Under the pieces are notes generated by a model. It searched no databases. It was not told where the DNA came from and saw only the letters and a list, made by a program, of their open reading frames with translations. A program made the position numbers and the translations under genes. From the NCBI GenBank assembly GCA_021789915.1, contig JAJYIV010000002.1, positions 613 through 64,612 on the forward strand: a stretch of DNA of 64,000 nucleotides, given 5' to 3'. Origin of the DNA: a bacterium. GTDB taxonomy: Bacteria; Patescibacteriota; Patescibacteriia; UBA9934; GWF2-40-263. This document shows, one piece after another, positions 5,585-61,409 of this stretch (positions are counted from its first letter, which is position 1; each line of letters begins with the position of its first letter).

Positions 5585-6261
5585 AGTCGGTATTTTCCCT
5601 CTTCGACGTCCGAGACGATCCGGCCGCCGTCGAGGGCGATCACGCGCTTTTTGAGGCCGTTCACGACTTCGCGATTATGCGTCACCAGCACGACCGTGGT
5701 GCCGAACTCGTTGATCTTGCGCAGCAGCTCCATGATTTCGCGCGTGTTGATGGTGTCCAGGTTGCCGGTGGGCTCGTCGGCCAGCAGGATTTTGGGGCGG
5801 TGGACGAGCGCGCGGGCGATCGCGATGCGCTGCTGTTCGCCGCCGGACAGCTGCCTGGGGAAACGGTCGGCCTTGTCCTGAAGGTTCACGATGCGCAGGA
5901 CCTGCGGGACGATGTCGCGCACGCGCTCCAGCGGCAATCCGGAGACTTCCAGCGCGAACGCGATGTTCTCCGCCACCGTTTTGCGCTGGAGGAGCTTGAA
6001 ATCCTGGAACACGACGCCGATCTGCCGGCGCAGGAGCGGAACGTCGCGCTCGCGGATGCGGGTGATGTCCCAGCCGCCGACCACCACCTGACCTTCCGTC
6101 GGATGCTCCTCCGCGAACATGAGCTTGGCGAGCGTCGTCTTGCCCGTGCCGCTTTGGCCCACGATGGAAACGAATTCCCCGGCCTTGATATGCAACGAGA
6201 CGTCGCGCACGGCCGCGACGTTCGGATGGTAGATTTTGGTGACGTTCTTGAAGCGGATCAT
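5581..6261 (-). CDS. ftsE: Cell division ATP-binding protein FtsE
   Basis: Start set at MIRFKNVTKIY. Walker A GQSGTGKTT and LSGGEQQR signature. The longer ORF to 6348 would overlap tRNA-Gly. Confidence 0.9.
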   Translation of the reverse strand: MIRFKNVTKIYHPNVAAVRDVSLHIKAGEFVSIVGQSGTGKTTLAKLMFAEEHPTEGQVVVGGWDITRIRERDVPLLRRQIGVVFQDFKLLQRKTVAENIAFALEVSGLPLERVRDIVPQVLRIVNLQDKADRFPRQLSGGEQQRIAIARALVHRPKILLADEPTGNLDTINTREIMELLRKINEFGTTVVLVTHNREVVNGLKKRVIALDGGRIVSDVEEGKYRL

Positions 6262-6311
6262 GCCGTCTTGCGATTGGTCGGAACGTCGGCTATTATAGCG
6301 CACGCCATCGC

Positions 6312-10892: not shown

Positions 10893-10917
10893 AGCCAACA
10901 GCCGTCAGCCGTCAGGG
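10893..10917. repeat. Heptamer array (GCCGTCA units)
   Basis: AGCCAACAGCCGTCAGCCGTCAGGG. Inverted relative to the array at 11322-11353. Confidence 0.85.
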
Positions 10918-11280
10918 ATTGGCCTTCGGCCTCGAAGAACACAAGACGTTCAACATACGCAAAACTTCATGCAAGAGACAGTCGGCTCGATCGTAATCGA
11001 GTGAACCGGTTCTCGGAAGCCGCCGAGCGATCGAGAGTTGCGTCTGAAGCTCGGCCGCCGAACCGTAAGCGATCGAGAGGAACCTGGCAAACTCATTGTC
11101 GTAGCCGCGCATCTTCCCTTCCGCGATATTCGATGGAATGGAAACCGCTGCTCGTCTCATTTGGCTTGTTAAACCGAATCGTTCGTCCGTCGGGAAAGAG
11201 TCGGTCAAGAGGTAAATCTCAAGGGAAAGATCCATGGCTTTTTGCCAGACAATGAGATCTTCGTATGGTCCTGTCGACAT
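10912..11280 (-). CDS. Four-helix-bundle protein (23S rRNA intervening-sequence protein family)
   Basis: YEDLIVWQKAMDL...IPSNIAEG...FLSIAYGSAAELQTQL is the family signature. The start could also be at 11292. Confidence 0.8.
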   Translation of the reverse strand: MSTGPYEDLIVWQKAMDLSLEIYLLTDSFPTDERFGLTSQMRRAAVSIPSNIAEGKMRGYDNEFARFLSIAYGSAAELQTQLSIARRLPRTGSLDYDRADCLLHEVLRMLNVLCSSRPKANP

Positions 11281-11321
11281 ATTGGTTCGCATGGTTGGCG
11301 TCAAATACGCGAGACGCTCGT

Positions 11322-11353
11322 GCCTGATGGCTGATGGCTGACGGCTGACGGCC
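11322..11353. repeat. Heptamer array (GCTGAYG units)
   Basis: GCCTGATGGCTGATGGCTGACGGCTGACGGCC. TGA recurs every 7 nt. Confidence 0.9.
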
Positions 11354-12543: not shown

Positions 12544-13602
12544 TCAAATCAGCGCGTCCAGCAGGGCAAGGGCGACGCCCAGCGCCGCGGCGACATACGC
12601 GACGACCCACAGGCGCATGACGATTTGCGGCTCCGGCCAGCCGCGCGCTTCCAAATGATGGTGGAACGGCGCGGACAGGAAGAGCTTGCGCTTGAACAGG
12701 CGCCGCCAGGCAAGCTGGAGCAGCACGGACAGCGATTCCAGCACGAACACGAATCCGATCACCGGCAACAGCAGGGCGGCGTTCGTCAGCATGGCGATGA
12801 CGCCCAGCGTGATGCCGAGCGACATGGATCCCGTATCGCCCATGAAGAAACGCGCCGGGTGGATGTTGAACCACAGGAAGGCGAGCAGGCCGCCGATGAC
12901 GGCGGCGCAGAAGACGGCCAAATCGTATTTGCCCTGCGCGAACGCGATCAAGGCGTAGGCGGCATAGGCGGGAAACAGGACGCCGCCGGCCAGGCCGTCC
13001 AGGCCGTCCGTCTCATTGACGGAGAAGGCCGTCGCGATGAGGACGGCCATGAAGACCGGCACGTACCACCAGCCGATGTCGAAGGTGCCGAAGAACGGCA
13101 CGTGCAGGATGCGCCAATCGAGCTTGACCGTGAACCACCAGGCGCCGACGGCGGCGATGGCCGCGTAAATGAGCAGGCGGTGGCGGGCGCGCAATCCGCC
13201 GCCATGCGCGCCGATGCGGCGGATGTTGAAATAATCGTCCACCAGGCCGACCAGCGCCGAGGCGACGAGGGCGCCGAGCGGCAGCAGCGTCTGCGCGCGC
13301 GTCAGGAAAGACAGCCGCGCGAACGCCGAATCCGGCAGCAGCCAGCCGAGCAGCGCGCACAGGAGGATCACGGCGAGCACCGTTCCCCACACGAGCAGCC
13401 CGCCCATGGTGGGCGTGCCCGCCTTCCTGGCATGCAGCCTGGCATAGACCGGCGTCTCTTCCGCCAGACGGATCGATTTGCCCATCTTGTGCGATTCCAG
13501 CCAATGCAGCAGCGCCGGCGCCCACAGGAACGCCAGCAGGAACGTAAGCGAGGCGATGACCAGAAGGCGGATCAGCTGGAAAGACGCGAGAGGGAGAGTC
13601 AT
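12544..13602 (-). CDS. mraY: Phospho-N-acetylmuramoyl-pentapeptide transferase
   Basis: 352 aa. Conserved MraY motifs NxxNxTDGLDGL and HHHxE (APFHHHLE). Confidence 0.95.
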   Translation of the reverse strand: MTLPLASFQLIRLLVIASLTFLLAFLWAPALLHWLESHKMGKSIRLAEETPVYARLHARKAGTPTMGGLLVWGTVLAVILLCALLGWLLPDSAFARLSFLTRAQTLLPLGALVASALVGLVDDYFNIRRIGAHGGGLRARHRLLIYAAIAAVGAWWFTVKLDWRILHVPFFGTFDIGWWYVPVFMAVLIATAFSVNETDGLDGLAGGVLFPAYAAYALIAFAQGKYDLAVFCAAVIGGLLAFLWFNIHPARFFMGDTGSMSLGITLGVIAMLTNAALLLPVIGFVFVLESLSVLLQLAWRRLFKRKLFLSAPFHHHLEARGWPEPQIVMRLWVVAYVAAALGVALALLDALI

Positions 13603-13609
13603 ACACGCT

Positions 13610-13722
13610 GAGACCCCTGAAAAACCGATGGGTGTTCGTTGTCCGCCGGAGGCGGATCCGGCTCTGCCGGAAATGGACTGCGGAACCCGCGAGACGAACA
13701 GGCGCGATTTTGCAGAGGTCTC
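13610..13722. ncRNA. Candidate structured RNA or MITE-like nested-hairpin element, copy X
   Basis: It fills the whole gap between two minus-strand genes. Closing stem GAGACCCCTG/CAGAGGTCTC. Homologous to 24253-24411 with compensatory changes. Confidence 0.35.
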
Positions 13723-14116
13723 ACAGGTTAAGCAGCACCATGAAGGTGGACGCGATGAGCAAGACGGTTTCGACGAACACGGTCAGGCCGAGAAAAAACA
13801 AGGCGATGAGGCGCTCGCGGCGGAAGGCCCAGGCGCCCACGGCGACATTCACCGCAAGGACGGCCAAGCCGAAGGCGGCCGGCGTGAAGAGCCGCCACCA
13901 CGGCCCGAACTGGTCCACGCCGAAATAAACCGTGCCGTGCAGCGGCACGTACATGCCCGGCGTCGCGCGCGGAAAGACTTTCCAAAACGGCAGGAAGGCC
14001 GTGAGCGCGACAAGCAGGAGAGAGACGGCGGTCAACCACCGGTAGGCGCGCGAACGGGCGAACAGATCGCGGAGAGAGGCGGCAGCGGCCCCCGACGCGT
14101 GACGGAGCGCGCGCAT
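13721..14116 (-). CDS. Hypothetical membrane protein
   Basis: 131 aa with 4 hydrophobic segments. Packed 1 nt after the nifU-like stop. Confidence 0.5.
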   Translation of the reverse strand: MRALRHASGAAAASLRDLFARSRAYRWLTAVSLLLVALTAFLPFWKVFPRATPGMYVPLHGTVYFGVDQFGPWWRLFTPAAFGLAVLAVNVAVGAWAFRRERLIALFFLGLTVFVETVLLIASTFMVLLNL

Positions 14117-14117
14117 A

Positions 14118-14402
14118 CTACTCGGCCGCAGGGATTTTTCGCCCGGCAGGGCCCGGGATGCCGACGTCTTCCGCCGTGGCCGACGCCGTCACTTCCTTCA
14201 CCCACGGCAACGCTTCCTGCAGCGCCATCTCAACGCCCATCCTGAGCGTGATCGCCGACATCGGGCAGCCGTGGCAAGCGCCCTGCAGGCGGACGCGCAC
14301 GACGCCCGTGGATTCGTCGAAATCGACCAGTTCGATGTCGCCGCCGTCCATGCGGAGCGCCGGCCGCACCCGTTTCAAGATTTCCTCGATTCGTTCGCGC
14401 AT
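14118..14402 (-). CDS. NifU-like Fe-S cluster assembly domain protein
   Basis: Start MRERIEEIL. Motifs RPALRMDGGDIELV and GACHGCPMS. Confidence 0.8.
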   Translation of the reverse strand: MRERIEEILKRVRPALRMDGGDIELVDFDESTGVVRVRLQGACHGCPMSAITLRMGVEMALQEALPWVKEVTASATAEDVGIPGPAGRKIPAAE

Positions 14403-14769: not shown

Positions 14770-14800
14770 GCTTTTAGCCATTAGCCTTTAGCCATGAGCC
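14770..14800. repeat. Heptamer array (TTAGCCA units)
   Basis: GCTTTTAGCCATTAGCCTTTAGCCATGAGCC. TAG at offsets 6, 13 and 20 on plus; TAA at 11, 18 and 25 on minus. Confidence 0.9.
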
Positions 14801-16333: not shown

Positions 16334-18100
16334 TCAAGTGGCGTTCCCGATGTTGTGCCGGCAGTGATCCGGCAGCATCGGCTGCAGCTTCCTGCGGAAG
16401 GCGGACGGCACGCGCTGCCACAGCAGGCGCGCCGCTTCGGGCTCGGCGGCGAGTCCCCAGAAGAGATCCTTCCATCCGTCGAGGCCGACGCCCTTCACGA
16501 AATCGTCCGGCTGGTCGCGGGTAAGGAACGCGAGCAGCCACGCCAGGAAGCGGAAGTCCCCGCCCCACCGGACGCCGAATCCCGGACCGACGGCCTGTAC
16601 AAGTCGGTGCGGCGTCAGAGATCCGTCGAACGCGCCGGACGCGAACAGCGCGAGGATGCCGTCGCGCAGCGGTTGTTCGCCGGCTTCCCACGCGTGCATC
16701 CAGAACCCGAGATCGAGGCGCTTGTTGTCGGGCCGCAGAATTTCCGGACCGAGATGACGCACCGCCACGTTGAGGCACGCGTGCACATCCGACGGCGGCA
16801 GATCGCTCGCGATGACCGCCGCCCACGGATACTCGTCTCGCATGCGCCGCTTCACGTCCGACGGCCATCGTTCGGCCCCGCCGAGGTATTGGCGCAGCAG
16901 CTTGGGCGGCAGTCGCAGCAGCACGTTCGCGTCCGCCGTCGCGACGACCAGGTCGGCGATCGTGCGCGACGCGCCGACGCCGTGGACGAAGATCCAGGCC
17001 GACCACGTGCGCAGCACTTCCTCTTCGCCCACGTCGATGTCGTCGCTCGCGAGAAACCGCGCCTTCACGGCGTCCACGAACGCGAGGAACGACTCCCTGG
17101 CGAACGCGACGAACGCGTCTTCGTCGCGCGAATCGTCCAACGGAACCTTGTCAAAGATGCGCTCCGGTTCCATGCACACGGTCGACAGCCGCAGCCATCG
17201 GCGCAGCGCGTCGACGGCCGCCGGCAATCGGCGCGCCACGGCCTGCGGCTCGAAGAACGTCCGCTCGACCAGATCCTTGAGCGCCAGCGGCTCGACCTGG
17301 AAGTTCAAATCCATGAAGCGGTCGAGGGACGTGCCGAGCCCGCCCGACACCGGGAGGAACAACGCATCCGGAAGCGTGAGCGCCCGGACGAAGTAGCTGC
17401 GGACGAACAGGTCCAGCAAGCCGCCGTGCGGGCACGGCGCGTCGACAGCCGGACGCCGGAACAGCCGGCGGACGTACACGTTGATGATGTCGTCGCCGCT
17501 GAACCAGCCTCGGATCGGGAACTGCTCCGCCGCCCGGCGCAGCAGCCGTTCGTTCTCGTCGCACGAAGCGACAGCGGCCAGGTACGCGGCGCGATCGGAC
17601 GGCGCGGACGCGCCGCGCGCGAGCGAGGCCAGCGCCTGCTCGCGCCCGACGCTCAGAAGCCCGAAGGCCGAGCCGCTGAGTACGACGACGTTCCGCCGCG
17701 ACAGGGACGCGGCGCGCACGGCGAGCTCCGAAAGGAGCGCGGCGCCGACACCGTACATCTCGAACAGCGACGCGGCACGCAGCATCACGACCGCGGCGTC
17801 CGCGTCGCCCTCCGCCGCTTCTTCGAGGCCGAGCGACAGGCACGCGCCGACGCGTTCCATGGCGGCGCGCCGGCCGTCCGGCTGCAGGAGATCGAGCTTC
17901 CGCTCGGCCGCCGCCTGAACAAGGCAGGCCTGCACGGCGTCCGCATCCGCGTCGCGCGCGGCGAGCTCCGCGTCCTGCCGGGCCCGCGCGTACGCGGCGC
18001 GGAAGAACGCGGAGGCGGTGCCCGGCTCTCGGCATTCGGCGCTCGGCGCGCGGAACGACCGCGCGAGCGCGCCTCCCGCTTGAACAATCGCCGTGTTCAC
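16334..18100 (-). CDS. Hypothetical protein (588 aa)
   Basis: GTG start at 18100 forms a GTGA overlap with the upstream stop. Balanced W/F/Y/D-containing composition. No family recognised. Confidence 0.6.
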   Translation of the reverse strand: MNTAIVQAGGALARSFRAPSAECREPGTASAFFRAAYARARQDAELAARDADADAVQACLVQAAAERKLDLLQPDGRRAAMERVGACLSLGLEEAAEGDADAAVVMLRAASLFEMYGVGAALLSELAVRAASLSRRNVVVLSGSAFGLLSVGREQALASLARGASAPSDRAAYLAAVASCDENERLLRRAAEQFPIRGWFSGDDIINVYVRRLFRRPAVDAPCPHGGLLDLFVRSYFVRALTLPDALFLPVSGGLGTSLDRFMDLNFQVEPLALKDLVERTFFEPQAVARRLPAAVDALRRWLRLSTVCMEPERIFDKVPLDDSRDEDAFVAFARESFLAFVDAVKARFLASDDIDVGEEEVLRTWSAWIFVHGVGASRTIADLVVATADANVLLRLPPKLLRQYLGGAERWPSDVKRRMRDEYPWAAVIASDLPPSDVHACLNVAVRHLGPEILRPDNKRLDLGFWMHAWEAGEQPLRDGILALFASGAFDGSLTPHRLVQAVGPGFGVRWGGDFRFLAWLLAFLTRDQPDDFVKGVGLDGWKDLFWGLAAEPEAARLLWQRVPSAFRRKLQPMLPDHCRHNIGNAT

Positions 18101-19051: not shown

Positions 19052-19477
19052 TTACGACGCCAGCCCGAGCTTTGCCTCGACGACCTGCAAACGCCCCTCG
19101 AAGCGATCCATCCGCAAGGTCGGCGCGACCAGCTCCTGCTCGATCGTCAGCTGCAGCCGCGCCACCTGGTCGCTCACGGCAAGGACTTCCTGACGAACGT
19201 CTTGAAGATCCTCCTTTGTCGCGAAACGGTCGAAATCGTCTTTCGTGGCAAAGTTCTGCAGATCGTCTTTCGTGGCAAAGTTCTGCAGATCGTCTTTCGT
19301 GGCAAAGTTCTGCAGATCGTCTTTCGTGGCAAAACGGTCGAAATCGGCCTTCATTGCCACATTCTCCTTTACGAAACCGATGAATTCGTGCATTTCCGAC
19401 GTTAAACCTTCGACCTTCCGTTCAAGGCCATCGAACTTCTGCGCCAGCTGATTTGTCGTCAGGTGTTCCTCACTCAT
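19052..19477 (-). CDS. Coiled-coil protein with tandem FATKDDLQN repeats (DUF1640-like pattern)
   Basis: 141 aa. Five 9-aa repeats flanked by heptad-like helices. Confidence 0.7.
   Translation of the reverse strand: MSEEHLTTNQLAQKFDGLERKVEGLTSEMHEFIGFVKENVAMKADFDRFATKDDLQNFATKDDLQNFATKDDLQNFATKDDFDRFATKEDLQDVRQEVLAVSDQVARLQLTIEQELVAPTLRMDRFEGRLQVVEAKLGLAS
19208..19345. repeat. 27-bp tandem repeat (3 perfect and 2 degenerate units) inside a CDS
   Basis: ATCGTCTTTCGTGGCAAAGTTCTGCAG x3 at 19235-19315, with diverged flanking units. Confidence 0.9.
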
Positions 19478-20253: not shown

Positions 20254-21864
20254 CTATTTCGCGACCGCCTTCAGGAACGCCCTGAACAGCGGATGCGGCT
20301 TCAGGGGCGAAGACTGGAACTCGGGATGGAATTGCACGCCGACGAAAAACGGATGATCCTTCAGCTCGATGATCTCCACGAGCTGACCGTCCGGAGACGT
20401 GCCGGCGACCACCAGCCCCGCCTTCGTCAGCGTCTCGCGGTACGCGTTGTTGAACTCGTAGCGGTGGCGGTGGCGTTCGCGGATCGCCGCCGTCCCGTAG
20501 GCGTGGCGGCTCACCGTCCCGGGCTTCAGCGCGCAGTCCCAGCTGCCCAGGCGCATCGTCGCGCCGTATTCGCGGTTCAACAGCTTTTTTTCCTGATCAG
20601 GCATGATGTGGACGACGGCGTGCGGCGCCTGCGGATCGATTTCCGTCGTATGCGCGCCCTTCAGTTCGCACGCGTCGCGGGCGAATTCGACGGCGGCCAG
20701 CTGCATGCCGTAGCAGAGGCCGAAGTACGGAACTTTTTTCTCCCGCGCGTAACGGATCGCCGCGATCACGCCTTCGATGCCGCGCGAACCGAAGCCGCCC
20801 GGCACCAGGACGCCGTCATAGCCCGCAAGGATTTTCTCCGCTCCGTGCTTTTCGATGTCCGCCGCGTCGATCCACGTGATCGCCGGCTTGCGGCTGATGG
20901 CCCACGCGGCGTGCTTCACCGCTTCGATGACGGAGATGTACACGTCGGAAAGCATGAAATCGCCGACGGCGAAATACTTGCCGACGATGGCGATCTTCAC
21001 GTCCCTCTTTGCGCGCCGGATCGCGTCGACGACGTCGCGCCACGGCTTCAAATCGGCGCGCTTCGGCTTGAGGCCGAGCCGCGCGAGCAGCCGCTGCGCG
21101 AAGCGCTGGTCTTCCAGGATGAGCGGCACCTCGTAGATCGATCCGCAATCCGGGTTGCTGATGACGTCCTCCTTGGCGACGTTGCAGAACAGCGCGATGC
21201 GCTCCTTGCGGCGGCCGTCCATCGCCTGCGACGAGCGGCCGACGACGAAATCCGGCTCGATGCCCATGCCGTTCAGCATGCGGACGCTCTGCTGCACCGG
21301 CTTCGTCTTCATCTCGCCCAGCGCGCCGGGAATCGGCAGGTACGCGACATGCACGTGCGCGACGTTCTTCGGCTCGCGGCGGCCGAGCAGGCGCGCCGCC
21401 TCGAAGAAGATGCCGTTCTGGTACTCGCCGACGGTGCCGCCCAGCTCGACGACGCAGATGTCGGCGCCCTGCCCGCCCAGCTTGAAGCGGCGGATGATCT
21501 CGTCGGTGACGTGCGGAATCGCCTCGACATCTTCGCCTTCGTAGGCAAACGCGCGCTCGCGGCGCAGCACTTCCGCGTACACCTGGCCCGTCGTCGCGTA
21601 CTGCGCGCGATGCAGCGGCCGGCCGATGAAGCGCTCGTAGTTGCCCAGGTCCTGGTCGGTTTCCAACCCGTCTTCCGTGACGAACACTTCCCCGTGTTCC
21701 GAAGGGCGTATGGTGCCGGCGTCCTGGTTCAGGTACATGTCCACCTTCATCGGCGCGACGCGGTAGCCGCGCGCTTCCAAGAGCGCCGACAACGACGCGG
21801 CGGTGATGCCTTTGCCGAGGCCGGAGATGACGCCGCCGGAGACGAACACGTACTTGGTGGGCAT
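20254..21864 (-). CDS. pyrG: CTP synthase
   Basis: MPTKYVFVSGGVISGLGKGI.., with a GATase domain containing GLCYGMQ. Confidence 0.97.
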   Translation of the reverse strand: MPTKYVFVSGGVISGLGKGITAASLSALLEARGYRVAPMKVDMYLNQDAGTIRPSEHGEVFVTEDGLETDQDLGNYERFIGRPLHRAQYATTGQVYAEVLRRERAFAYEGEDVEAIPHVTDEIIRRFKLGGQGADICVVELGGTVGEYQNGIFFEAARLLGRREPKNVAHVHVAYLPIPGALGEMKTKPVQQSVRMLNGMGIEPDFVVGRSSQAMDGRRKERIALFCNVAKEDVISNPDCGSIYEVPLILEDQRFAQRLLARLGLKPKRADLKPWRDVVDAIRRAKRDVKIAIVGKYFAVGDFMLSDVYISVIEAVKHAAWAISRKPAITWIDAADIEKHGAEKILAGYDGVLVPGGFGSRGIEGVIAAIRYAREKKVPYFGLCYGMQLAAVEFARDACELKGAHTTEIDPQAPHAVVHIMPDQEKKLLNREYGATMRLGSWDCALKPGTVSRHAYGTAAIRERHRHRYEFNNAYRETLTKAGLVVAGTSPDGQLVEIIELKDHPFFVGVQFHPEFQSSPLKPHPLFRAFLKAVAK

Positions 21865-21872
21865 AGGGGGAA

Positions 21873-21914
21873 GCGGTTAGCCATTAGCTGTTAGCCGTTA
21901 GCTTCTAACTGTTG
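21873..21914. repeat. Heptamer array (TTAGCYN units)
   Basis: GCGGTTAGCCATTAGCTGTTAGCCGTTAGCTTCTAACTGTTG, directly upstream of the pyrG start. Confidence 0.9.
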
Positions 21915-21950: not shown

Positions 21951-22397
21951 TCAAGGAGACGGTTCGACAATGAGGGTGAATGAGGCTTCCGCCGTCGGGG
22001 CGAGGCGTGCGACGATCTTCGAGGTACCGGCGTTCTTCACGGGCTTGAACCCGGCGAGCGCGTGCTCGGGAACGGCGAACCCGGCTTTCGCGAGCGCCTC
22101 CGCGACCGTGCGCGGCGTGACGGCAGCGTAGAGATGTCCGGTTTCGGTGGCGGATTCCTTGAGGACGAGGCGGAACCCGTTCAGCCGCCGCGCCGTCTGC
22201 TGCACGGTCCCCGTCGCCTGCTTTGCCCGGCGGGCTTCGGCGTCCTTCTTTTCCTTGAGTCGGCGCCGCGCGTCCGCCGATGCCGGCACGGCCGCGCCCG
22301 AGGGGAGCAGCTGGTTGCGCGCCTGGCCGTCGGAGACCGTCACCATGTCCCCGGCCCGACCCAATCCTTTGACGGCCTTCACGAGAATGACATCCAT
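21951..22397 (-). CDS. rplI: 50S ribosomal protein L9
   Basis: MDVILVKAVKGLGRAGDMVTVSDGQARN.. is an L9 N-terminal domain. Confidence 0.9.
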   Translation of the reverse strand: MDVILVKAVKGLGRAGDMVTVSDGQARNQLLPSGAAVPASADARRRLKEKKDAEARRAKQATGTVQQTARRLNGFRLVLKESATETGHLYAAVTPRTVAEALAKAGFAVPEHALAGFKPVKNAGTSKIVARLAPTAEASFTLIVEPSP

Positions 22398-22484: not shown

Positions 22485-22652
22485 GACATCTGCGTGTTCG
22501 CCGGTCTTCCCGCCTTCTGTACATCCGAGAAGGACGGCATGGTCGTCACCCTCCCCTACCCGTTAGCGAACGGTCGGGAGAATTCTGTCAGCTTCCGACT
22601 CCGCGGGAAGACAACGGTCCTCGCCGCGCCGCACATCGTCTACGTCCACTGA
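22485..22652 (+). pseudogene. 3' fragment of a paralog of the 24824..25207 gene
   Basis: DICVFAGLPAFCTSEKDG..APHIVYVH aligns with KACVFGGLPAICETSKRG..APHIIYVP. No N-terminal part or start is present. Confidence 0.45.
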
Positions 22653-22706
22653 CGCACGCGCGTCCGCGCGGTTCGTGAGCCCGACGCTCACGGCCGCCGC
22701 GGGCGC
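22626..22706 (+). repeat. 81-bp direct repeat, copy A
   Basis: 78/81 identical to 25181-25261. Covers the last 8 codons, the stop and hairpins. Confidence 0.9.
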
Positions 22707-24180: not shown

Positions 24181-24252
24181 TCGGGTTCGAAAAAGCTCCA
24201 ACGGGATCGCCACCGCGGCGGGTATCGCTTTCTTTGGAGCTAAAGAAAGATT

Positions 24253-24411
24253 GAGACCTCTGAAAAACTGATGGATTTTCGTTGTCAGCCAAAGGCTGAT
24301 CAGCCTCTGGCTGAAATGGGCTGCCGAGCCCCGCGAACCCTACTGAAACGTAGGGAGAGCGGGGTCGGCGGGCGCCCATGAAACGAAAAGACGCCGTTTT
24401 GCAGAGGTCTC
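24253..24411. ncRNA. Candidate structured RNA or MITE-like nested-hairpin element, copy Y
   Basis: Perfect closing stem GAGACCTCTG/CAGAGGTCTC. Same hairpin order as copy X, with an extra ~45-nt insertion. Confidence 0.35.
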
Positions 24412-24420
24412 GATTCTTTG

Positions 24421-24469: not shown

Positions 24470-24545
24470 TGGTGGACCTGATGGGAGTCGAACCCACATC
24501 TTATGGTGCTAACTCAGGCGAGGTTACCGTTTCCTCCACAGGCCC
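24470..24545 (-). ncRNA. tRNA-like RNA (tRNA-Ala-like, degenerate anticodon stem)
   Basis: GGGCCTG-TG-GAGG-AAACGGTAA-CCTC..GTGGG-TTCGACT-CCCAT-CAGGTCC-ACCA. G3:U70 is present. The anticodon arm CCTGA/GTTAGCA/CCATA does not pair. Confidence 0.5.
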
Positions 24546-24823: not shown

Positions 24824-25207
24824 GTGATCCACAGAATCGTGATTGGAACAGTCGTCGCCGTCGGTGTTCTCTACCTCGCAAAGCCCATCGTCGGGTACTT
24901 CCACGAACAGGACGTGAAGGTACGCGCCGAGACCGACGTCGTGTGCGCGCACGTGACCCCGGCCAACTGGGGCGGCGAGGACAGCGCAACCTGCCGTAAG
25001 CTCGTGGCCAAGTTCATCAACATCGACCTCAAGCCGAAGGCCTGCGTCTTCGGCGGACTCCCGGCCATTTGCGAGACGTCGAAGAGGGGCACCGATGTCG
25101 CCGTGTTCCTCAAACGAAAAGACGGGCCGCTCCAGTACAGCCTGCTGCCCATCATGACCAAGGAACAGCTGGCGAACTCGGCGCCGCACATCATCTACGT
25201 CCCCTGA
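24824..25207 (+). CDS. Small membrane-anchored or secreted protein (127 aa)
   Basis: GTG start 7 nt after AAGGAG. N-terminal TM segment IVIGTVVAVGVLYL. Four Cys residues. Confidence 0.6.
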   Translation: MIHRIVIGTVVAVGVLYLAKPIVGYFHEQDVKVRAETDVVCAHVTPANWGGEDSATCRKLVAKFINIDLKPKACVFGGLPAICETSKRGTDVAVFLKRKDGPLQYSLLPIMTKEQLANSAPHIIYVP

Positions 25208-25261
25208 CGCACGCGCGTCCGCGCGGTTCGTGAGCCCAACGCTCACGGCCGCCGCGGGCGC
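25181..25261 (+). repeat. 81-bp direct repeat, copy B
   Basis: 78/81 identical to 22626-22706. Confidence 0.9.
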
Positions 25262-26865: not shown

Positions 26866-26896
26866 GGCTGTAGGCTTTTAGCTTTTAGCTGTTAGC
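26866..26896. repeat. Heptamer array, left arm of an imperfect inverted pair
   Basis: GGCTGTAGGCTTTTAGCTTTTAGCTGTTAGC. Confidence 0.85.
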
Positions 26897-26913
26897 CGAA
26901 ATAGTTCCCATCC

Positions 26914-26945
26914 GGCCAGTAGCCAATGGCTAATGGCCAAAAGCC
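26914..26945. repeat. Heptamer array, right arm of an imperfect inverted pair
   Basis: GGCCAGTAGCCAATGGCTAATGGCCAAAAGCC. Confidence 0.85.
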
Positions 26946-40348: not shown

Positions 40349-40470
40349 AAACGTGGAACGTAGAGCGTAGAACGGCGGGACGGGGAACGGGGATGTTCGC
40401 GAATGAGATGGCGGAAGGATAACAAGAAGGAAAAAACTTGGCAAGGGGAGCAGAGATGTGAGACAGGCTC

Positions 40471-42909: not shown

Positions 42910-43191
42910 TTACAGCAGCGCGTCCTTGGCGGCCTTCGCGACGCGGAACTTCACCACCGTCTTGGCCGGGATCTGGATCGTGGCGCCCGTGGCCGGGTTG
43001 CGGCCCTGGCGCGCGGCGCGATGGACCTTCACCAGCTTGCCAATGCCAGGCAGGGCGAACTCGCCGGAAGACTTCACTTCCTTGTACGCCAGGTTGACGA
43101 GCTTCTCCATGAACATCGCCACGTCTTTTTTCGACATGCCGGACGCGTCCGCGAGAGCGCTCATCACCTGACTCTTCGTCATCTTGGCCAT
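42910..43191 (-). CDS. hup: DNA-binding protein HU
   Basis: MAKMTKSQVMSALA..FALPGIGKL..RNPATGATIQIPA is the HU/IHF signature. Confidence 0.93.
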   Translation of the reverse strand: MAKMTKSQVMSALADASGMSKKDVAMFMEKLVNLAYKEVKSSGEFALPGIGKLVKVHRAARQGRNPATGATIQIPAKTVVKFRVAKAAKDALL

Positions 43192-45108: not shown

Positions 45109-46440
45109 ATGTCCACGGGGATGCGCCGCGGCCTGGCTTGGGCGTTTGTCATCCTGTTCCTCATCAGCGCCCCGGTTGTCGTCCTGTACACGGCCGGGTA
45201 CCGGCTCAACCTCCCGTCCGGCCGCCTCGTGCAGACCGGCATCCTTTCCATCAGCAGCGTCCCGTCCGGCGCGCGGGTGCTGGTGGACGGCGTTTTGTCC
45301 GGCACGACGTCGGCGCTCGTCAAGAATCTGCTGCCGGGATCCCACCGCGTCGAGCTGCGCAAGGACGGCTATCTGCCGTGGAGCAAGACGCTGCCGATCG
45401 AAAGCCAGCGGACGACGTTCGTGCAGAACGCCGTCCTGAACGCGGACAAGCCGGCCGTGCTGCAACGCGCGGCTTCGGCCGGCGCGGGCGCGTTCGCCCG
45501 CGCGACGGGAAACGCCGCGTACGTGCGGCAGGGCAAGGTCTGGAATGAGATCTGGTCCTATCAGCCGCAGGACGGCGGCGACCGTTTGGTCGCGCGGCGG
45601 CCGTCTTCCGACGGCATGCCGGCGCTCGCCTGGTCGCCGGACGGCACCACGCTGGCGATTTCAACGGGTTCCGGCCCGTCGCGTTCCGTCTCGCTGGTCA
45701 ACGTGGACGACGGACGGCGCTTCGACCTTCCCGCCAAATCGGGAACGCCCGCCGGCTGGGATGCGGGCACGGGCGCGGCGTATCTTCTTTCGGCGAAGGA
45801 CGGGATCTCGAGCGCGGACGTGGACGGCGACGTGGTTTCCATCGCGCCGTCGCCCGCCCTGGCGCTCGAAACGTCCGCGGACGGCTCCTATGCCATCGTG
45901 GCGGCGGAAGGCGAGCGCCTTGCCGTCGTCCATCGGCAGGCGAACGGCGTTTCGCTGGTCGGCTATGTCCCGATGGGGAATTACCGGTTCGCGCCGGCGC
46001 CGGACGGCTGGCTTGCGCTGGACGACGCCGACCGCCAATCGCTCATCGTCCTGGACGGAAACGGATCGGGGGCCGCCGTGCTGACGGCGAATGCGTCGCA
46101 ATGGCAGTGGGAGCCGAAGGGACGCCGCCTGCTGTACACCGACGGACATGAGTTGCACCTGTTCGATCCGCTCGGCGGCGGAGACGAGACCTTGACCCGC
46201 GTCTCGGATCCCATCACCGGCATCGCCTGGCGCGTCGGGCTTGACGCCGCCTTGTACGCGCAAGGGGCGCAGCTCGTTTCGATCGAGTTCGACCGGCGCG
46301 ACGGGCGCGAAACGGCGACGCTGGCGCAAGGCAACGGCTTCCAAAGCCTGTGGACGGACCCGTCGGGAAAGACGGCATTCACGTTCGGAAGCTTGGACGG
46401 CGGAAAGACGAGCGGGCTGATCAGCCGGGGGCTGGAGTGA
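45109..46440 (+). CDS. PEGA-domain protein with a beta-propeller-like C-terminal region
   Basis: TM segment followed by a PEGA-like motif (SVPSGARVLVDG..GSHRVELRKDGYLPW). Confidence 0.65.
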   Translation: MSTGMRRGLAWAFVILFLISAPVVVLYTAGYRLNLPSGRLVQTGILSISSVPSGARVLVDGVLSGTTSALVKNLLPGSHRVELRKDGYLPWSKTLPIESQRTTFVQNAVLNADKPAVLQRAASAGAGAFARATGNAAYVRQGKVWNEIWSYQPQDGGDRLVARRPSSDGMPALAWSPDGTTLAISTGSGPSRSVSLVNVDDGRRFDLPAKSGTPAGWDAGTGAAYLLSAKDGISSADVDGDVVSIAPSPALALETSADGSYAIVAAEGERLAVVHRQANGVSLVGYVPMGNYRFAPAPDGWLALDDADRQSLIVLDGNGSGAAVLTANASQWQWEPKGRRLLYTDGHELHLFDPLGGGDETLTRVSDPITGIAWRVGLDAALYAQGAQLVSIEFDRRDGRETATLAQGNGFQSLWTDPSGKTAFTFGSLDGGKTSGLISRGLE

Positions 46441-46590
46441 TGGAGTCAGAAGTCAGAAGTCAGAAGTCAGGGCGGAGGAGTAGCCAGGAGCATGTAGTTC
46501 GTAGTCAGGGCGAGACACGCGGGCTAAAGCCTAACACCTGCCGAATGCCGAATGCCGCCGGCTGAAACCTAGAACCTGAAACCTAAAGCC
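46441..46590. repeat. Mosaic of 7-nt-periodic repeats
   Basis: AAGTCAG x4, CTAAAGC/CTAACAC, CCGAATG x2, then TGAAACC-TAGAACC-TGAAACC-TAAAGCC. Confidence 0.85.
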
Positions 46591-46601
46591 CAACGCCTCA
46601 C

Positions 46602-46643
46602 AAAAAATCGCCCCGCCTCCTCGTCGTGAGGAAGCGGGGCTTT
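46602..46643. terminator. Terminator hairpin between convergent genes
   Basis: GCCCCGCCTCCTC..GAGGAAGCGGGGC, flanked by A6 and TTT. Confidence 0.6.
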
Positions 46644-46659: not shown

Positions 46660-47520
46660 CTAGACGAGCGGCGGGAACACGTCGGGCTGCCGCGCGACGG
46701 CGCGCGTGTAGCGGTGCAGAGCCGCGAGCGTGAAGCCGTCGTAGAACGCGCCGCGCTCCTCGAGTTCGTCCGCCTGCGCCTGCGTGAAGTACTGCACACG
46801 CAGGATGGCCTCGTTGGGGTCGGTCATGTCCGGCGGCAGCGTGCGGGACGGATCGACGACGGCCGCCATCAAGTCCACGAGGTGGACCGACTGGCCGGTG
46901 TTGTCGCAGACCTGGCCGAGCGAACCGACGACGCGCACGGCCGTCCCCATCTCCTCCTGCGCCTCGCGGACGGCCGCGTCCGTACCGGCCTCGCCCGCCT
47001 TGGCGTAGCCGCGCGGGATTTCCCAGACCTCGCGGCCGAGCACGTCGCCGACGAACAGGCCGTCGAACGCCCGTCGAAACGCGCCGGCGGCGTACGCTCC
47101 GTTCTGCGAATCCGCAGCGAACGCCTTGGCGAAGGAGGAAAACCCTCCGGCCATCGCGAAATCGGCCAGCTCGCGCTTGAAACGCGCCCAAGCCGCGCGC
47201 ACGTCTTCCTCGCGCTCGGGCTTGATCTGGTAGCGCACGCGCTTCTGCAGGCCGAGCAGGCCGCCCGCTCGCACGTCGGCCTGGTCGATGAGTTTGACGA
47301 CGAGGGTCGCGCCGCCGCCGGCCTCGAGCCGCATGAGGTGCCTGTACTTGTGGCGCTCCACGCCGTCGGCACCGACGTCCACGAAGTCCAAACCGAGATA
47401 CCCCACCGGCACGGCGGGCTTCAGCAGGAGCAGAGCGGAGTCCACCCCCTCAGGACACAGCACCCACTCAGGCTTGTCGAAGAACGCATTGCCGCGAACT
47501 GCCTTGATTGCTTCCGTCAT
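46660..47520 (-). CDS. NUDIX-domain protein with an N-terminal extension
   Basis: Start MTEAIKAV, with a GGGAGGA RBS. Nudix-like box GYAKAGEAGTDAAVREAQEEMG. Confidence 0.6.
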   Translation of the reverse strand: MTEAIKAVRGNAFFDKPEWVLCPEGVDSALLLLKPAVPVGYLGLDFVDVGADGVERHKYRHLMRLEAGGGATLVVKLIDQADVRAGGLLGLQKRVRYQIKPEREEDVRAAWARFKRELADFAMAGGFSSFAKAFAADSQNGAYAAGAFRRAFDGLFVGDVLGREVWEIPRGYAKAGEAGTDAAVREAQEEMGTAVRVVGSLGQVCDNTGQSVHLVDLMAAVVDPSRTLPPDMTDPNEAILRVQYFTQAQADELEERGAFYDGFTLAALHRYTRAVARQPDVFPPLV

Positions 47521-55319: not shown

Positions 55320-55757
55320 TCATTCCAGCGGCCAGGTTTCCAGCGGCAGGTTCACGCTTTCGTCCGGCTCCCAGGCGACGGTCGCCCCGTTGCAGACGAT
55401 CGCGGCGCCTTCGCCGGCGCAGCGCCACGCATAGGCCACGCCCGGCGGGATCGTCAGCAGGAAGGACTTCCCTTCCGCCGGCGCCAGCTCGTACGTCTCC
55501 GCCGCGCCCCTGGCCGGCGAACCGTCGCGCTCGTCGCGGATCCAGAAGCGCATCGCGCCGGAGACGACCGCCATGTTGGACGTGGAACGGGCGTGCCGTT
55601 TCCATCCTTTCGTCACGCCCGGGTTCACGGTCGAAAAATACACCTCGCCGAAGCGCGTGAACGGCGCGCGCCCCTCGCGCAGGAAATGCATCACGCTTCC
55701 CCGCTCGTCGCGGACGATCTTGAGGGGCGTCAGCAGGACGCCGGGAATGGAGGACAT
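55320..55757 (-). CDS. Sugar-nucleotide 3,5-epimerase-like cupin (RmlC family)
   Basis: 145 aa. DERGSVMHFLRE..GEVYFSTVNPG..KGWKRH pattern. Confidence 0.7.
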   Translation of the reverse strand: MSSIPGVLLTPLKIVRDERGSVMHFLREGRAPFTRFGEVYFSTVNPGVTKGWKRHARSTSNMAVVSGAMRFWIRDERDGSPARGAAETYELAPAEGKSFLLTIPPGVAYAWRCAGEGAAIVCNGATVAWEPDESVNLPLETWPLE

Positions 55758-55761
55758 AGAA

Positions 55762-55788
55762 GTTCGCCGTTAGCCGTTAGCCGTTAGG
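55762..55788. repeat. Heptamer array (GCCGTTA units)
   Basis: GTTCGCCGTTAGCCGTTAGCCGTTAGG. Confidence 0.9.
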
Positions 55789-55810
55789 AAAAAGGACGCG
55801 CAGCCCCCCA

Positions 55811-55835
55811 AAGCCAAAGGCTAATGGCTAATGGC
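55811..55835. repeat. Heptamer array (GGCTAAT units), inverted partner
   Basis: AAGCCAAAGGCTAATGGCTAATGGC. Confidence 0.9.
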
Positions 55836-55840
55836 TTTTT

Positions 55841-59465: not shown

Positions 59466-59495
59466 GCGTTTAGCCATTAGCCGTTAGCCTTTAGC
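59466..59495. repeat. Heptamer array (TTAGCCN units)
   Basis: GCGTTTAGCCATTAGCCGTTAGCCTTTAGC. Confidence 0.9.
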
Positions 59496-59506
59496 ATGTG
59501 TCTCTC

Positions 59507-59530
59507 GCCTGACGGCTGACGGCTAATGGC
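59507..59530. repeat. Heptamer array (GGCTGAC/GGCTAAT), inverted partner
   Basis: GCCTGACGGCTGACGGCTAATGGC. Contains the stop codon of the 59523..61409 ORF. Confidence 0.9.
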
Positions 59531-61409
59531 TTGCAATGACATACAGCGTCTCGATCCCGAACGTCTGCACCGGCACGAACGTAAGGCCGTCGGCCTTCAG
59601 TTTGTCCGTGTTGAGATAGTTCAGATCTTGCGCCGGCAGCGTGATGCCGAAGTAGTACGTCGGCGCGTGCGCGACGAGCGCGGGCAGCAGCGCATAGGTC
59701 CGCGGATCGCGCAGCGGATAGCGCACGGCGCGATCCGGAAAGAAGATTTTGTCGTCGCGGTCAACGACGATGACGGCGTCCGCCGGCGTCAGGCGCATCA
59801 CGGCGTCATGCACGGCGCGCTCTTGCGCCAACACCTGCGCCTCAGCGAACAAGCCGTCCTCCGGGGTCAGGAACGCCGTGCGGAACCCGAGCGCCGCCCA
59901 GGCGACCCAGCCGACGACGAGCACGACGGAGCCGAGGCGCTTCGCACGCGCGGCAAGCTCGTCGAGCGCCACGGCCGCGAGCGGCACCCAGGCGACGAAG
60001 ATCGGCAGCCAGTACCGCACGTGCGAATTGCCGACGGTGATCTGCGTCGGATCCGGATTGTCCGTGAACGTCCAGCTGCCGTACATCAGCACGAGCCAGA
60101 CCGTCACGACGAGGGCGACGAGGAGATAGGGCCAAAAGCAGCTGGCAGCTGGCAGCTGGCAGCTGGGGGAAGAACCGCGACGGCGCTTCGACAAGACGCG
60201 GACGGCCAACAAGATGATGCCGAGCGCCGCCAGGACGAACTCCCACCAGAACATCCTCAAGCCATAGGCGACGAACTGCCGCCAGGCCAGGCGCGGATGG
60301 ATGCCGAAGGGAAAGACGAAGGAGAGCGCTCGCTCCATGGCGCGCCGCCACGCGGGCATGGAGGCTCCGGGGGCGAGCGCTGCCGCAGACGTGGATGATT
60401 CCCCCCCTGCCAAGCCTGTCCTGAGCGAAGTCGAAGGAGGGGGGCTGCCGGCTGACTCCATGACGGCCGGCGGGGGGGTATGCGCCACGGCTATGGCCGG
60501 CACGGAGACGAGATCGCCGCCGGACGCGTCCGCCGCCGCCTGGTAGCCCGTCGTCCACGGCGAACCGTACAGACGCTGGTTCAAAAACGGCATGGGCGAG
60601 AGGACGACGAGGAACCCAAGCACGCCGGCGGCGACGAAGCGGCGATCCAGCTGCCGCCATTGCCAGGCGAAGGCGGCCGCCGCGGGAACGACCAACCACA
60701 CGGCTTCCGACGCGCGGATGAAGAGCGCGAGCCCCAGCAGCGCGCCCGCGGCGAAACCGTCGAGCGCATGGTGCCAGCGCCCCGCGGATGCACGGGAAGC
60801 GCCCGCGAGGATTGCCCCCCTGCCAAGGGGGGCTGCCTGCTGGCCGTCATGCGGCAGGCGGGGGGTATGCGAGGTGGACGTGGTGGAAGCGTTTTGAAAC
60901 GGCCGCGCGAGGAAAAACCAGAAGGCGAAGCCCACGCATGCGAGGAACGGCACATTGGGCATGAGCGAGCGGGCCGTGTAGAACCACCACGCCGGCTGCA
61001 GCGCGAGCAGCGCGCCCGCGATCCATCCCGCGCGCCGGCCGAACAGGCGCCCGAAGACGGCCGCCCACGCGAGCACGCCGAGCGCGGAGAGCAGGATCGG
61101 CACGTACGGGATCGCCCGGGCGCCGAACGCCTTCGCCGCGACGCCGAGCGCGAGCGGCAAGCCGAGGAAGCTCGCGGGAACGAGCGCGCCGCGCGTCGCA
61201 AGCACGCTGCGCGGATGCAGCGCGTCGCCGAGCGCGGCGGCGAGCGGCTCGGGCGCGGACAGCGTCGACGTCGCCGCGTACGCCCCGGCGAAGAACGACA
61301 CGGCCGTTTCGTCCGGCGACACGAAGATGGCTCCCGACGCGCGCAGCGCGAGGGAACCGAGGACGAGCAGCAGGCAGGAAGAGGCGAGCAGCCAGCGGAC
61401 GGGGTTCAT
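59523..61409 (-). CDS. Polytopic membrane protein, probable ArnT/PMT-like glycosyltransferase
   Basis: 628 aa with more than 10 TM segments and a soluble C-terminal domain. Sits in a glycosylation cluster. Two repeat inserts. Confidence 0.5.
   Translation of the reverse strand: MNPVRWLLASSCLLLVLGSLALRASGAIFVSPDETAVSFFAGAYAATSTLSAPEPLAAALGDALHPRSVLATRGALVPASFLGLPLALGVAAKAFGARAIPYVPILLSALGVLAWAAVFGRLFGRRAGWIAGALLALQPAWWFYTARSLMPNVPFLACVGFAFWFFLARPFQNASTTSTSHTPRLPHDGQQAAPLGRGAILAGASRASAGRWHHALDGFAAGALLGLALFIRASEAVWLVVPAAAAFAWQWRQLDRRFVAAGVLGFLVVLSPMPFLNQRLYGSPWTTGYQAAADASGGDLVSVPAIAVAHTPPPAVMESAGSPPPSTSLRTGLAGGESSTSAAALAPGASMPAWRRAMERALSFVFPFGIHPRLAWRQFVAYGLRMFWWEFVLAALGIILLAVRVLSKRRRGSSPSCQLPAASCFWPYLLVALVVTVWLVLMYGSWTFTDNPDPTQITVGNSHVRYWLPIFVAWVPLAAVALDELAARAKRLGSVVLVVGWVAWAALGFRTAFLTPEDGLFAEAQVLAQERAVHDAVMRLTPADAVIVVDRDDKIFFPDRAVRYPLRDPRTYALLPALVAHAPTYYFGITLPAQDLNYLNTDKLKADGLTFVPVQTFGIETLYVIASH
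60399..60485. repeat. Composite GC-rich repeat, in-frame within a CDS
   Basis: TTCCCCCCCTGCCAAG plus CCTGTCCTGAGCGAAGTCGAAGGAGGGGGG plus CTGCCGGC..GCCGGCGGGGGGGTATGCG. Confidence 0.85.
60812..60874. repeat. GC-rich double-hairpin repeat (G6 subfamily), in-frame within a CDS
   Basis: TTGCCCCCCTGCCAAGGGGGGCTGCCTGCTGGCCGTCATGCGGCAGGCGGGGGGTATGCGAGG. Confidence 0.9.

Follow-up and report, generated by a model that had tools for sequence, protein, structure and literature searches.

Why should several different tandem repeats, each with a seven-nucleotide unit, lie end to end in one spacer between two genes, and does such an arrangement carry a function? The question is raised by a 64,000-nucleotide (nt) stretch of bacterial DNA – contig JAJYIV010000002.1 of assembly GCA_021789915.1, positions 613 to 64,612 of the forward strand, referred to here as the window – in which positions 46441-46590 are a patchwork of short 7-base tandem repeats. 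This mosaic starts directly after the TGA stop codon (46438-46440) of a gene encoding a PEGA-domain protein, inside a 219-nt spacer separating that gene from a convergent NUDIX-domain gene. The window has a GC content of 65.5% and is treated as DNA from a GC-rich, Uhrbacteria-like lineage within the Candidate Phyla Radiation (CPR), because its CTP synthase (pyrG) shares 72-74% identity with the enzymes of Candidatus Uhrbacteria and other Patescibacteria metagenome-assembled genomes (MAGs). An earlier examination of the letters alone, the sequence-only reading, had listed several of the heptamers together with a row of regularly spaced stop triplets, and suggested that selection or a generating mechanism acts on periodicity, not on a specific motif. 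We conclude that the mosaic, which lies in the untranslated spacer 3′ of the PEGA gene, is probably made of four to five short, independently registered, slippage-born heptanucleotide simple sequence repeats (SSRs) that have decayed to differing degrees. We assign no function to it.

Structure of the heptamer mosaic

Five blocks can be distinguished, all described here on the plus strand. Array A (46442-46470) was read directly as one GGAGTCA unit followed by three GAAGTCA units and a final G, i.e. (G[G/A]AGTCA)×4. Tandem Repeats Finder (TRF) reports it as AGTCAGA ×3.9 with 100% matches and a score of 54, the perfect run covers 46444-46470, and on the minus strand the unit is CTGACTT. The first unit, GGAGTCA, is one mismatch from the last seven bases of the PEGA open reading frame (ORF), GGAGTGA (46434-46440), at an 8-nt offset, a likeness that is compatible with local seeding of array A and to which we give little weight. 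Block B (46479-46506) is degenerate and weak, with NNNGTAG-like units (AGTAGCC, AGGAGCA, TGTAGTT and CGTAGTC) that emerge from a register layout and without a TRF call; it adds to the lag-7 and lag-14 signal described below, and had been left unlabelled in the sequence-only reading. Block C (46522-46536) comprises two degenerate units of the GGCTRAY family, GGCTAAA and GCCTAAC, recognized by sequence and block comparison; read one base later as GCTAAAG and CCTAACA (46523-46536), the two match weakly, at 4/7 bases. Array D (46539-46557) is a perfect (TGCCGAA)×2.7, found by both TRF and an exact-run scan. Array E (46560-46590) is GGCTGAAACCTAGAACCTGAAACCTAAAGCC, laid out in register as GGCTGAA, ACCTAGA, ACCTGAA, ACCTAAA and a terminal GCC; it has the form of a decaying GGCTRAY-like array, which TRF reports as AAACCTA ×3.3 with 75% matches. 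Its triplets TGA, TAG, TGA and TAA start at 46563, 46570, 46577 and 46584, exactly 7 nt apart and covering all three frames. The heptamers and the triplet spacing of the sequence-only reading are thus all present where it had placed them, as judged by sequence, TRF and exact runs.

Blocks C and E are 66% identical to one another at a 3-nt register shift, and the GGCTAAA/GCCTAAC and ACCTRAA blocks are degenerate relatives of the GGCTRAY arrays found elsewhere in the window. The previous statement that the units of the mosaic differ from GGCTRAY therefore does not apply to these two blocks, and overall the units diverge from GGCTRAY only in part. No common register links the sub-arrays: the best shifts differ between blocks. 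A single ancestral array running in one register over 150 nt was considered, its layout being suggestive, with G as the second base in 16/22 units, and was rejected because the block-against-block comparison gave differing best shifts.

The periodicity is strong. Self-identity across 46441-46600 is 0.569 at a lag of 7, 0.466 at 14 and 0.424 at 21, compared with 0.263 ± 0.035 in shuffled sequences (z = 8.8, 5.6 and 4.4, respectively). An independent Logan assembly of run SRR13170411 (L001) matches the window over 8641 nt at 100% identity, mosaic included, which excludes a one-off assembly error; being a single run, it is silent on variation in the population. Apart from this duplicate assembly, no second copy of the mosaic is present elsewhere in the window or among fetched loci totalling ~2 Mb.

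The mosaic occupies the interval between the PEGA stop codon and a hairpin at 46610-46640 with a 13-bp GC-rich stem, which was identified by a terminator scan, a fold z-score of -3.5 and alignment to the related contig L085. As a terminator, this hairpin is strong for the NUDIX gene on the minus strand (tail GATTTTTTGT) and weaker for the PEGA gene (tail TTTGCGTT). The features of an intrinsic terminator, a GC-rich hairpin and a T-run, are found here and not in the mosaic, the RNA of which folds on either strand with no more structure than shuffled sequences (z = +0.84 and +0.56). Rfam 15 gives no match at gathering score in the region, and the sole weak match (E 0.43), at chance level, is on the terminator; no promoter-like site is seen near the mosaic. 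Translation of the mosaic, either as an extension of the PEGA protein or as a small ORF, was rejected: the C-termini of homologues end at the same place, and stops occur within 18 codons. The PEGA gene itself (45109-46440, plus strand; Pfam PF08308, E 1.7e-12) rests on a gene call based on GC content at third codon positions (GC3) and on alignment of its C-terminus with homologues P0002-P0004. The convergent gene (46660-47520, minus strand; Pfam PF00293) is not homologous to the gene at the same position in L085.

The mosaic is absent from the closest relatives found. A search of genome contigs with the PEGA protein returned no relative, and homologues were taken from a protein database together with their contigs; the nearest are just 46-50% identical in amino acid sequence, and their contigs retain the S41 peptidase, PEGA and rhamnose/glycosyltransferase cluster. 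L085, which carries the closest PEGA homologue found (50% amino acid identity; 67% GC), has a hairpin within a few bases of the stop codon that aligns closely with the window terminator over ~50 nt, and the window has ~165 extra nt between stop and hairpin. The position of the L085 hairpin directly 3′ of the PEGA stop therefore marks the mosaic as a lineage-specific addition of ~165 nt. No such mosaic is present in L082, L083 or L084 either. Gene order also varies: rmlD follows PEGA directly in L082, and the opposite-strand NUDIX gene lies between the two in the window.

Seven-nucleotide periodicity in the window and in other genomes

Period-7 repeats are in large excess in the window. Using a GC3-based gene map, we defined as non-coding every spacer of 30 nt or longer (42 spacers, 8.1 kb), scored perfect arrays of at least 17 nt, and derived the expectation from 200 dinucleotide-preserving shuffles. 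The spacers contain seven perfect period-7 arrays, the shuffles a mean of 0.025 and a maximum of 1; perfect arrays with periods of 4, 5, 6, 8, 9 or 10 number zero. Eight of the nine perfect period-7 arrays in the window are in non-coding DNA, which accounts for just 12% of it, a count that uses a corrected four-helix-bundle gene and a corrected murG start (at MKILFAGGG) that makes the 10899-10915 array the murG leader. The comparison of intergenic period-7 signal with shuffled controls, proposed along with the sequence-only reading, is thus positive at the scale of the contig. Its accompanying suggestion that such mosaics mark convergent gene ends finds no such pattern: arrays occur in 2/9 convergent, 6/42 co-directional (7/42 with the corrected murG start) and 0/9 divergent spacers.

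The preference extends beyond the window. Eighty Patescibacteria pyrG loci (1.37 Mb), unselected for repeats, contain 39 perfect arrays of period 7, 19 of period 9, 17 of period 8, 10 of period 6 and fewer elsewhere; with TRF the numbers are 97 (period 7), 58 (9), 48 (6), 41 (8), 13 (10) and 2 (5). The unit sequences resemble random heptamers in relation to GGCTRAY. Heptamer density varies widely among these loci, and the closest pyrG relatives of the window have few. One Patescibacteria MAG contig (CAZQWH010000006.1; L018) is far richer in heptamers than the window: its 21 kb contain ten arrays of up to 9 copies, all of them between long ORFs (sites include 264-329, 12824-12883, 17740-17795 and 20852-20902) and built of CAGTAGA, TCCACAG, TCCAAAG, TCTAAAG, AAACTAT and other units.

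Unit turnover is seen most directly in the spacer upstream of pyrG, where three lineages have three unrelated units: the window has (R)GCTAAY ×4, L006 an AGTGAGT/ACTCACT pair in inverted orientation, and L018 AAATCAG ×2.4. The pyrG leaders of L002-L005 have no array.

A metagenome scan for (GGCTRAY)×3 yielded at least 120 contigs (0.70 Mb) spanning 35-76% GC; the set was picked by motif and is therefore silent on how frequent GGCTRAY is overall. Among the matches listed there are 83 further heptamer arrays, 54 of them at two or more mismatches from GGCTRAY, and no other period exceeds 18 arrays. The listed contigs also include mosaics of adjacent, different units in L089 (TATCAGC ×9 abutting GCTGACG ×8), L102 and L188, as well as inverted pairs.

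The suggestion that periodicity counts, rather than any specific motif, accordingly holds in four respects: the excess in the window, period 7 as the modal class in the 80 loci, the random-like units there, and the unrelated units of the pyrG spacer. The idea is not new, and coincides with the published polymerase-slippage hypothesis (Mrazek et al. 2007).

Origin of the mosaic and other readings

We propose the following origin for the mosaic. Replication slippage, here and in many bacteria, would preferentially duplicate 7-nt units, and an array could expand or contract once two or three copies were present. Point mutations, mostly A/G transitions, would then erode the arrays, and variant units would be re-amplified beside older ones. 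The predicted outcome is young perfect arrays (AGTCAGA ×4 and TGCCGAA ×2.7) next to the decaying GGCTAAA-GCCTAAC and ACCTRAA ×4. Arrays would persist solely where they are harmless, that is in non-coding spacers, up to the starts, stops and terminators that selection would hold in place.

The alternatives turn largely on the other heptamer arrays of the window, several of which lie next to gene starts. A minus-strand GGCTGAC array (10899-10915) runs in register, as GGCTGAC GGCTGTT GGCTTAC CGCTATG, into the start of murG, a gene identified by its MurG Pfam domains, and a plus-strand (CTGAYGG)×4 array (11324-11352) separates the ftsW stop from the start of a four-helix-bundle gene. Also on the minus strand, GGCTAAN ×4 (14774-14800) is upstream of rpmA (L27), and the (R)GCTAAY ×4 array mentioned above (21872-21902) is upstream of pyrG. 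In a convergent spacer, GAACGGG ×3.3 (40370-40393, plus strand) comes just after the stop codon of a small ORF on the plus strand. Inverted pairs are present in three spacers: GCTTTTA/GTTAGCC … AATGGCT at 26868-26945, between two MacB-like permease genes, forms a hairpin (z = -4.4/-3.4), as does (GCCGTTA)×3 … (GGCTAAT)×2.6 at 55762-55836, which fills the spacer of two rhamnose-pathway genes (z = -3.3/-4.4); the fold of (TTAGCCR)×3.7 … (CTGACGG)×2.3 at 59470-59524 is not significant (z ~ -1.1 to -1.3). The TAG stop codon of gene 59523-61409 falls within the first unit of this last pair.

All six start-adjacent arrays are GGCTRAY in the mRNA sense, with the starts at ~10890 (murG), 14761 (rpmA), 21864 (pyrG), 55757, 59460 and 26861. 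Four of these leaders (murG, rpmA, pyrG and gene 55320-55757) have degenerate units that carry the register on into NNCTATG, and starts in the window commonly lie within CTATG. Only about one quarter of window genes have a Shine-Dalgarno-like sequence, and CT comes before about one third of the ATG starts. A TATACT-like box is present in front of several genes; it usually ends 10-13 nt from the start codon, though much further upstream at 42910-43191, and its positions suggest very short leaders. Genes with upstream regions that illustrate these start features include 14118-14402, 21951-22397, 5581-6303 and 42910-43191. Arrays as -10 promoter elements were considered, as the last CTAAYN hexamer is at -16 to -11 in three leaders, like the TATACT boxes elsewhere; the hexamer does not have the conserved final T of a -10 hexamer (position -7), and this reading is unsupported. 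A HutP-like protein-binding site, (UAG-N4)×3, was considered for the TTAGCCA arrays and set aside because units and strands vary and many have no UAG, no dedicated search for a HutP homologue having been made. RNA-level selection on the inverted-pair hairpins was likewise rejected, as the asymmetry of G·U and A·C pairs does not consistently favour the transcribed strand.

These arrangements give substance to a reading in which heptamer arrays, the GGCTRAY-like blocks included, are functional cis-elements, and the mosaic modulates stability or 3′ end formation of the PEGA mRNA. Variants would have a factor reading RNA or DNA in a 7-nt register, tunable intercistronic hairpins, or translation-initiation pads as proposed for the TAACTGA repeats of Beggiatoaceae. 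In the window the density of GGCTRAY is 2.9/kb in non-coding and 0.30/kb in coding DNA, a 10-fold difference, the start-adjacent arrays are uniformly mRNA-sense (6/6) and mostly in register with ATG (4/6), and the two significant hairpins fold at z -3.3 to -4.4. Most genes here are without a Shine-Dalgarno sequence, like the repeat-bearing BOGUAY genes (PMC4679880), and in our own comparison the rotated TAACTGA unit (CTGATAA) shares 5/7 in-register bases with CTGATGG. An inverted architecture is also retained between L117 and L204, two related high-GC metagenome contigs whose spacers (82% identity in a 3-kb alignment) both read GGCTGAT…ATCAGCC and differ in unit number and sequence; in these (L117 1280-1480; L204, reverse complement, ~1697-1717) the outermost bases ATCATGGCT / AGCCATGAT pair, including the downstream start codon. 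The mosaic itself, however, is unstructured, lacks a partner in inverted orientation and has no gene start after it; its three or more unit types, in different registers, would not be tolerable to a sequence-specific reader; and it is missing from all relatives examined. No functional theme unites the genes beside the arrays, which are pyrG, rpmA, murG, ftsW, ABC permeases and genes of sugar pathways, and where the hairpins have wobbles or mismatches these give no preference for the transcribed strand. The sense orientation of GGCTRAY before starts, 6/6 in the window, is also reversed among the metagenome matches listed (18 antisense vs 6 sense), so there is no general orientation rule; the commoner leader form among those matches is (ATYAGCC)n followed directly by ATG. 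We therefore regard a functional role as a minority reading, unlikely for the PEGA mosaic and bearing more on the other arrays of the window. A broader version, which we consider quite improbable, would make CTRAY-type arrays one cross-phylum class of functional leader and spacer elements, spanning GGCTRAY and CTGACTT here, GGCTGAY in the metagenome contigs of 35-76% GC, and TAACTGA in Beggiatoaceae and Cyanobacteria, with the PEGA mosaic as a decayed member. A conserved component of the translation or replication machinery would recognize such arrays in a 7-nt register, and many of them would form inverted pairs whose units stay in phase into a start or stop codon.

The row of stop triplets invites another functional account, in which arrays are selected as all-frame stop ladders that catch frameshifted or read-through ribosomes, or force termination before a downstream start. 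Three copies of a stop-bearing heptamer place a stop in each frame, as the TGA/TAG/TGA/TAA of array E does, GGCTRAY units hold a sense-strand TAA or TGA before six start codons, and off-frame stops are rare at 65.5% GC. The sequence-only reading had drawn attention to this coverage of all frames and all stop codons, which loses its force on closer inspection: the triplets are T-R-R variants, and because three of the four possible T-R-R are stops, we infer that four in a row would arise with P ~0.32. The first stops past the TGA in the PEGA sense are at 46495, 46481 and 46563 in the three frames, 41-123 nt away, so one frame is closed only at 46563; neither array A nor array D contains a stop on the sense strand, and CTGACTT, downstream of the NUDIX terminator, has its TGA on the minus strand. 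Many long arrays elsewhere are stop-free on both strands, for example TCCACAG ×8.5 and TCCAAAG ×8 in L018, as are the longest arrays of that contig, and among the metagenome matches listed the usual sense unit before starts is the stop-free ATCAGCC or GTCAGCC. Partial data already point to stop-containing units being no commoner than non-coding composition predicts. Selection for stop ladders is accordingly very improbable; the ladder looks like an incidental by-product of R/R variation in one decaying unit, and needs no adaptive explanation. We give equally little credence to the mosaic as the remnant of a mobile or dispersed element, such as a miniature inverted-repeat transposable element (MITE) or a repetitive extragenic palindromic (REP) sequence, or as a scar of the rearrangement that placed NUDIX between PEGA and rmlD. 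The different gene order in L082, where PEGA and rmlD are adjacent, would fit such an event, as would the low-GC four-helix-bundle gene that lies between inverted heptamer arrays elsewhere in the window. Yet the mosaic has no terminal inverted repeats or target duplications, does not fold, consists of tandem 7-mers throughout and is without a second copy in the window and fetched loci, and the adjacent terminator matches the hairpin after PEGA in L085, and therefore appears to belong with PEGA.

Slippage thus remains the explanation that we favour, and four considerations weigh against it. Slippage as the generator, and the neutrality of its products, are inferences that draw, for this organism, on one population and one assembly. 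There is no established mechanism for a preference of 7 over 5, 6 or 8. Motif does matter within a genome: among the metagenome matches listed, 35% of the further arrays differ from GGCTRAY by a single mismatch, compared with 6% expected. Finally, the GGCTRAY arrays elsewhere in the window are non-randomly placed, and a function could apply to this sub-family, array E included.

Several further features were noted in the window. The four-helix-bundle gene (10930-11292, minus strand), a lower-GC gene of the 23S-rRNA-intervening-sequence type (PF05635) located between ftsW and murG, is flanked on both sides by inverted GGCTGAY arrays (10899-10915 and 11324-11352). Two copies of a structured RNA-like element (13603-13725 and 24245-24414, plus strand) have a long closing stem, GAGACC.CUG … CAGAGGUCUC, two small hairpins and four compensatory pair changes between copies; with no Rfam match even at E<=1, it is a possible small RNA of an undescribed kind. 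Two direct copies of an 81-nt sequence (22626-22706 and 25181-25261; 96% identity) bracket ~2.5 kb containing two ORFs, the second RNA-like copy and a low-scoring tRNA-Ala (24470-24545) with the unusual anticodon AGC; the bracketed stretch looks like an insertion or segmental duplication. At 19235-19333, a perfect 27-nt tandem repeat ×3.7 (ATCGTCTTTCGTGGCAAAGTTCTGCAG) encodes a 9-residue repeat in a small ORF (19052-19477, minus strand), and its lack of mismatches suggests a very recent expansion.

Relation to known heptamer repeats

Several families of bacterial heptamer repeats have been described, and none of the named units considered here – those of the cyanobacterial short tandemly repeated repetitive (STRR) sequences, GGGAATC, GGGGAYT and TAACTGA – occurs in tandem in the window. 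TAACTGA repeats are found in marine Beggiatoaceae, some Cyanobacteria and Bacteroidetes, and in Beggiatoaceae abut the starts of genes without a Shine-Dalgarno sequence (MacGregor 2015, PMC4679880). They resemble the window arrays in having 2-6 copies of a stop-containing, mostly intergenic unit with no theme in the flanking genes, and the rotated unit CTGATAA is similar to the CTGAYGG and CTGACTT of the window. They have one dominant unit, whereas there are several here, and the mosaic is at a 3′ end and not in a 5′ leader; placement upstream of starts is seen in other window arrays and not in the mosaic, which follows a stop. TAACTGA has zero occurrences in the window, which places the mosaic outside the TAACTGA network.

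The STRR sequences of Calothrix, Nostoc and Anabaena share with the window several intergenic heptamer repeats per genome, transcribed with their neighbours. They belong to a different phylum and their arrays are usually longer, and with no tandem CCCCAAT, TTGGTCA or CAACAGT in the window the mosaic is not one of them. The GGGAATC repeats of Xanthomonas and GGGGAYT of Nostoc are intergenic, near ORF ends, sometimes inverted and rare between divergent genes (PMC4692102), and vary in length and sequence between close relatives (Rehm et al. 2015, PMC4692102). The window arrays are likewise absent from divergent spacers (0/9), include inverted pairs and are variable among relatives, but have no G-tracts, whereas those repeats are G-tract units that form G-quadruplexes.

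Heptamers are also used in phase variation, as in the 5′ region of H. influenzae hmw1A/hmw2A (PMC12721329, PMC8262952) and the TTTTGAT heptads of V. cholerae ctxAB (bioRxiv 10.1101/2021.05.14.444153). These too are tandem 7-nt units, which change copy number by slippage. They lie in promoters or 5′ untranslated regions with demonstrated regulatory effects, unlike the mosaic, which is downstream of a stop codon, with no promoter-like site, and therefore has no plausible role as an on/off switch; it does not resemble a phase-variable contingency locus. A better candidate for this class is a perfect GCAGCTG ×4.1 array (60138-60166) by a glycan gene cluster, inside the coding region of gene 59523-61409 (minus strand), which encodes a 628-residue multi-pass membrane protein with no Pfam match: a frameshift would follow if one unit were added or lost, making it a candidate slippage-driven on/off switch. 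REP sequences and bacterial interspersed mosaic elements (BIMEs) are short repeats in spacers at gene 3′ ends, and the inverted GGCTRAY pairs of the window fold in a similar manner. REPs are dispersed palindromic units, however, and the mosaic is tandem and neither palindromic nor dispersed; its fold scores on both strands and single copy separate it from REP/BIME and MITE-like elements.

Over-representation of heptamers has been known since 2007, without a proven cause. In the accounts given in PMC4679880 and PMC4692102 of the work of Mrazek et al. (2007), heptanucleotides are the most abundant class of long SSR in most prokaryotic genomes; these arrays are sporadically distributed, and their unit length may reflect the length of DNA that contacts the polymerase in slippage. 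No report of heptamer repeats in Patescibacteria or the CPR, or of GGCTRAY-type units, was found in the literature searched, and the window thus adds a CPR lineage to the heptamer-rich genomes, with new units. It is a clean illustration of period over sequence, through the mixed units within one spacer, the turnover of units in relatives and units that resemble random heptamers, and small, streamlined genomes are a convenient comparative set for the polymerase-slippage idea and for why 7 is favoured. For annotation, heptamer arrays should by default be taken neither as genes nor as terminators or regulatory sites. The window arrays belong with the heptanucleotide SSRs in having head-to-tail 7-nt units, an excess over base composition and a non-coding bias. 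As far as these accounts describe them, the long SSRs of Mrazek, Guo and Shah (2007) are similar in that tandem heptamers are the leading class and lie mainly in non-coding DNA, with many units per genome, a sporadic distribution across phyla and slippage as the proposed origin; by comparison, the window arrays are short (2.4-4 copies), and are clustered as a mosaic in one 3′ spacer.

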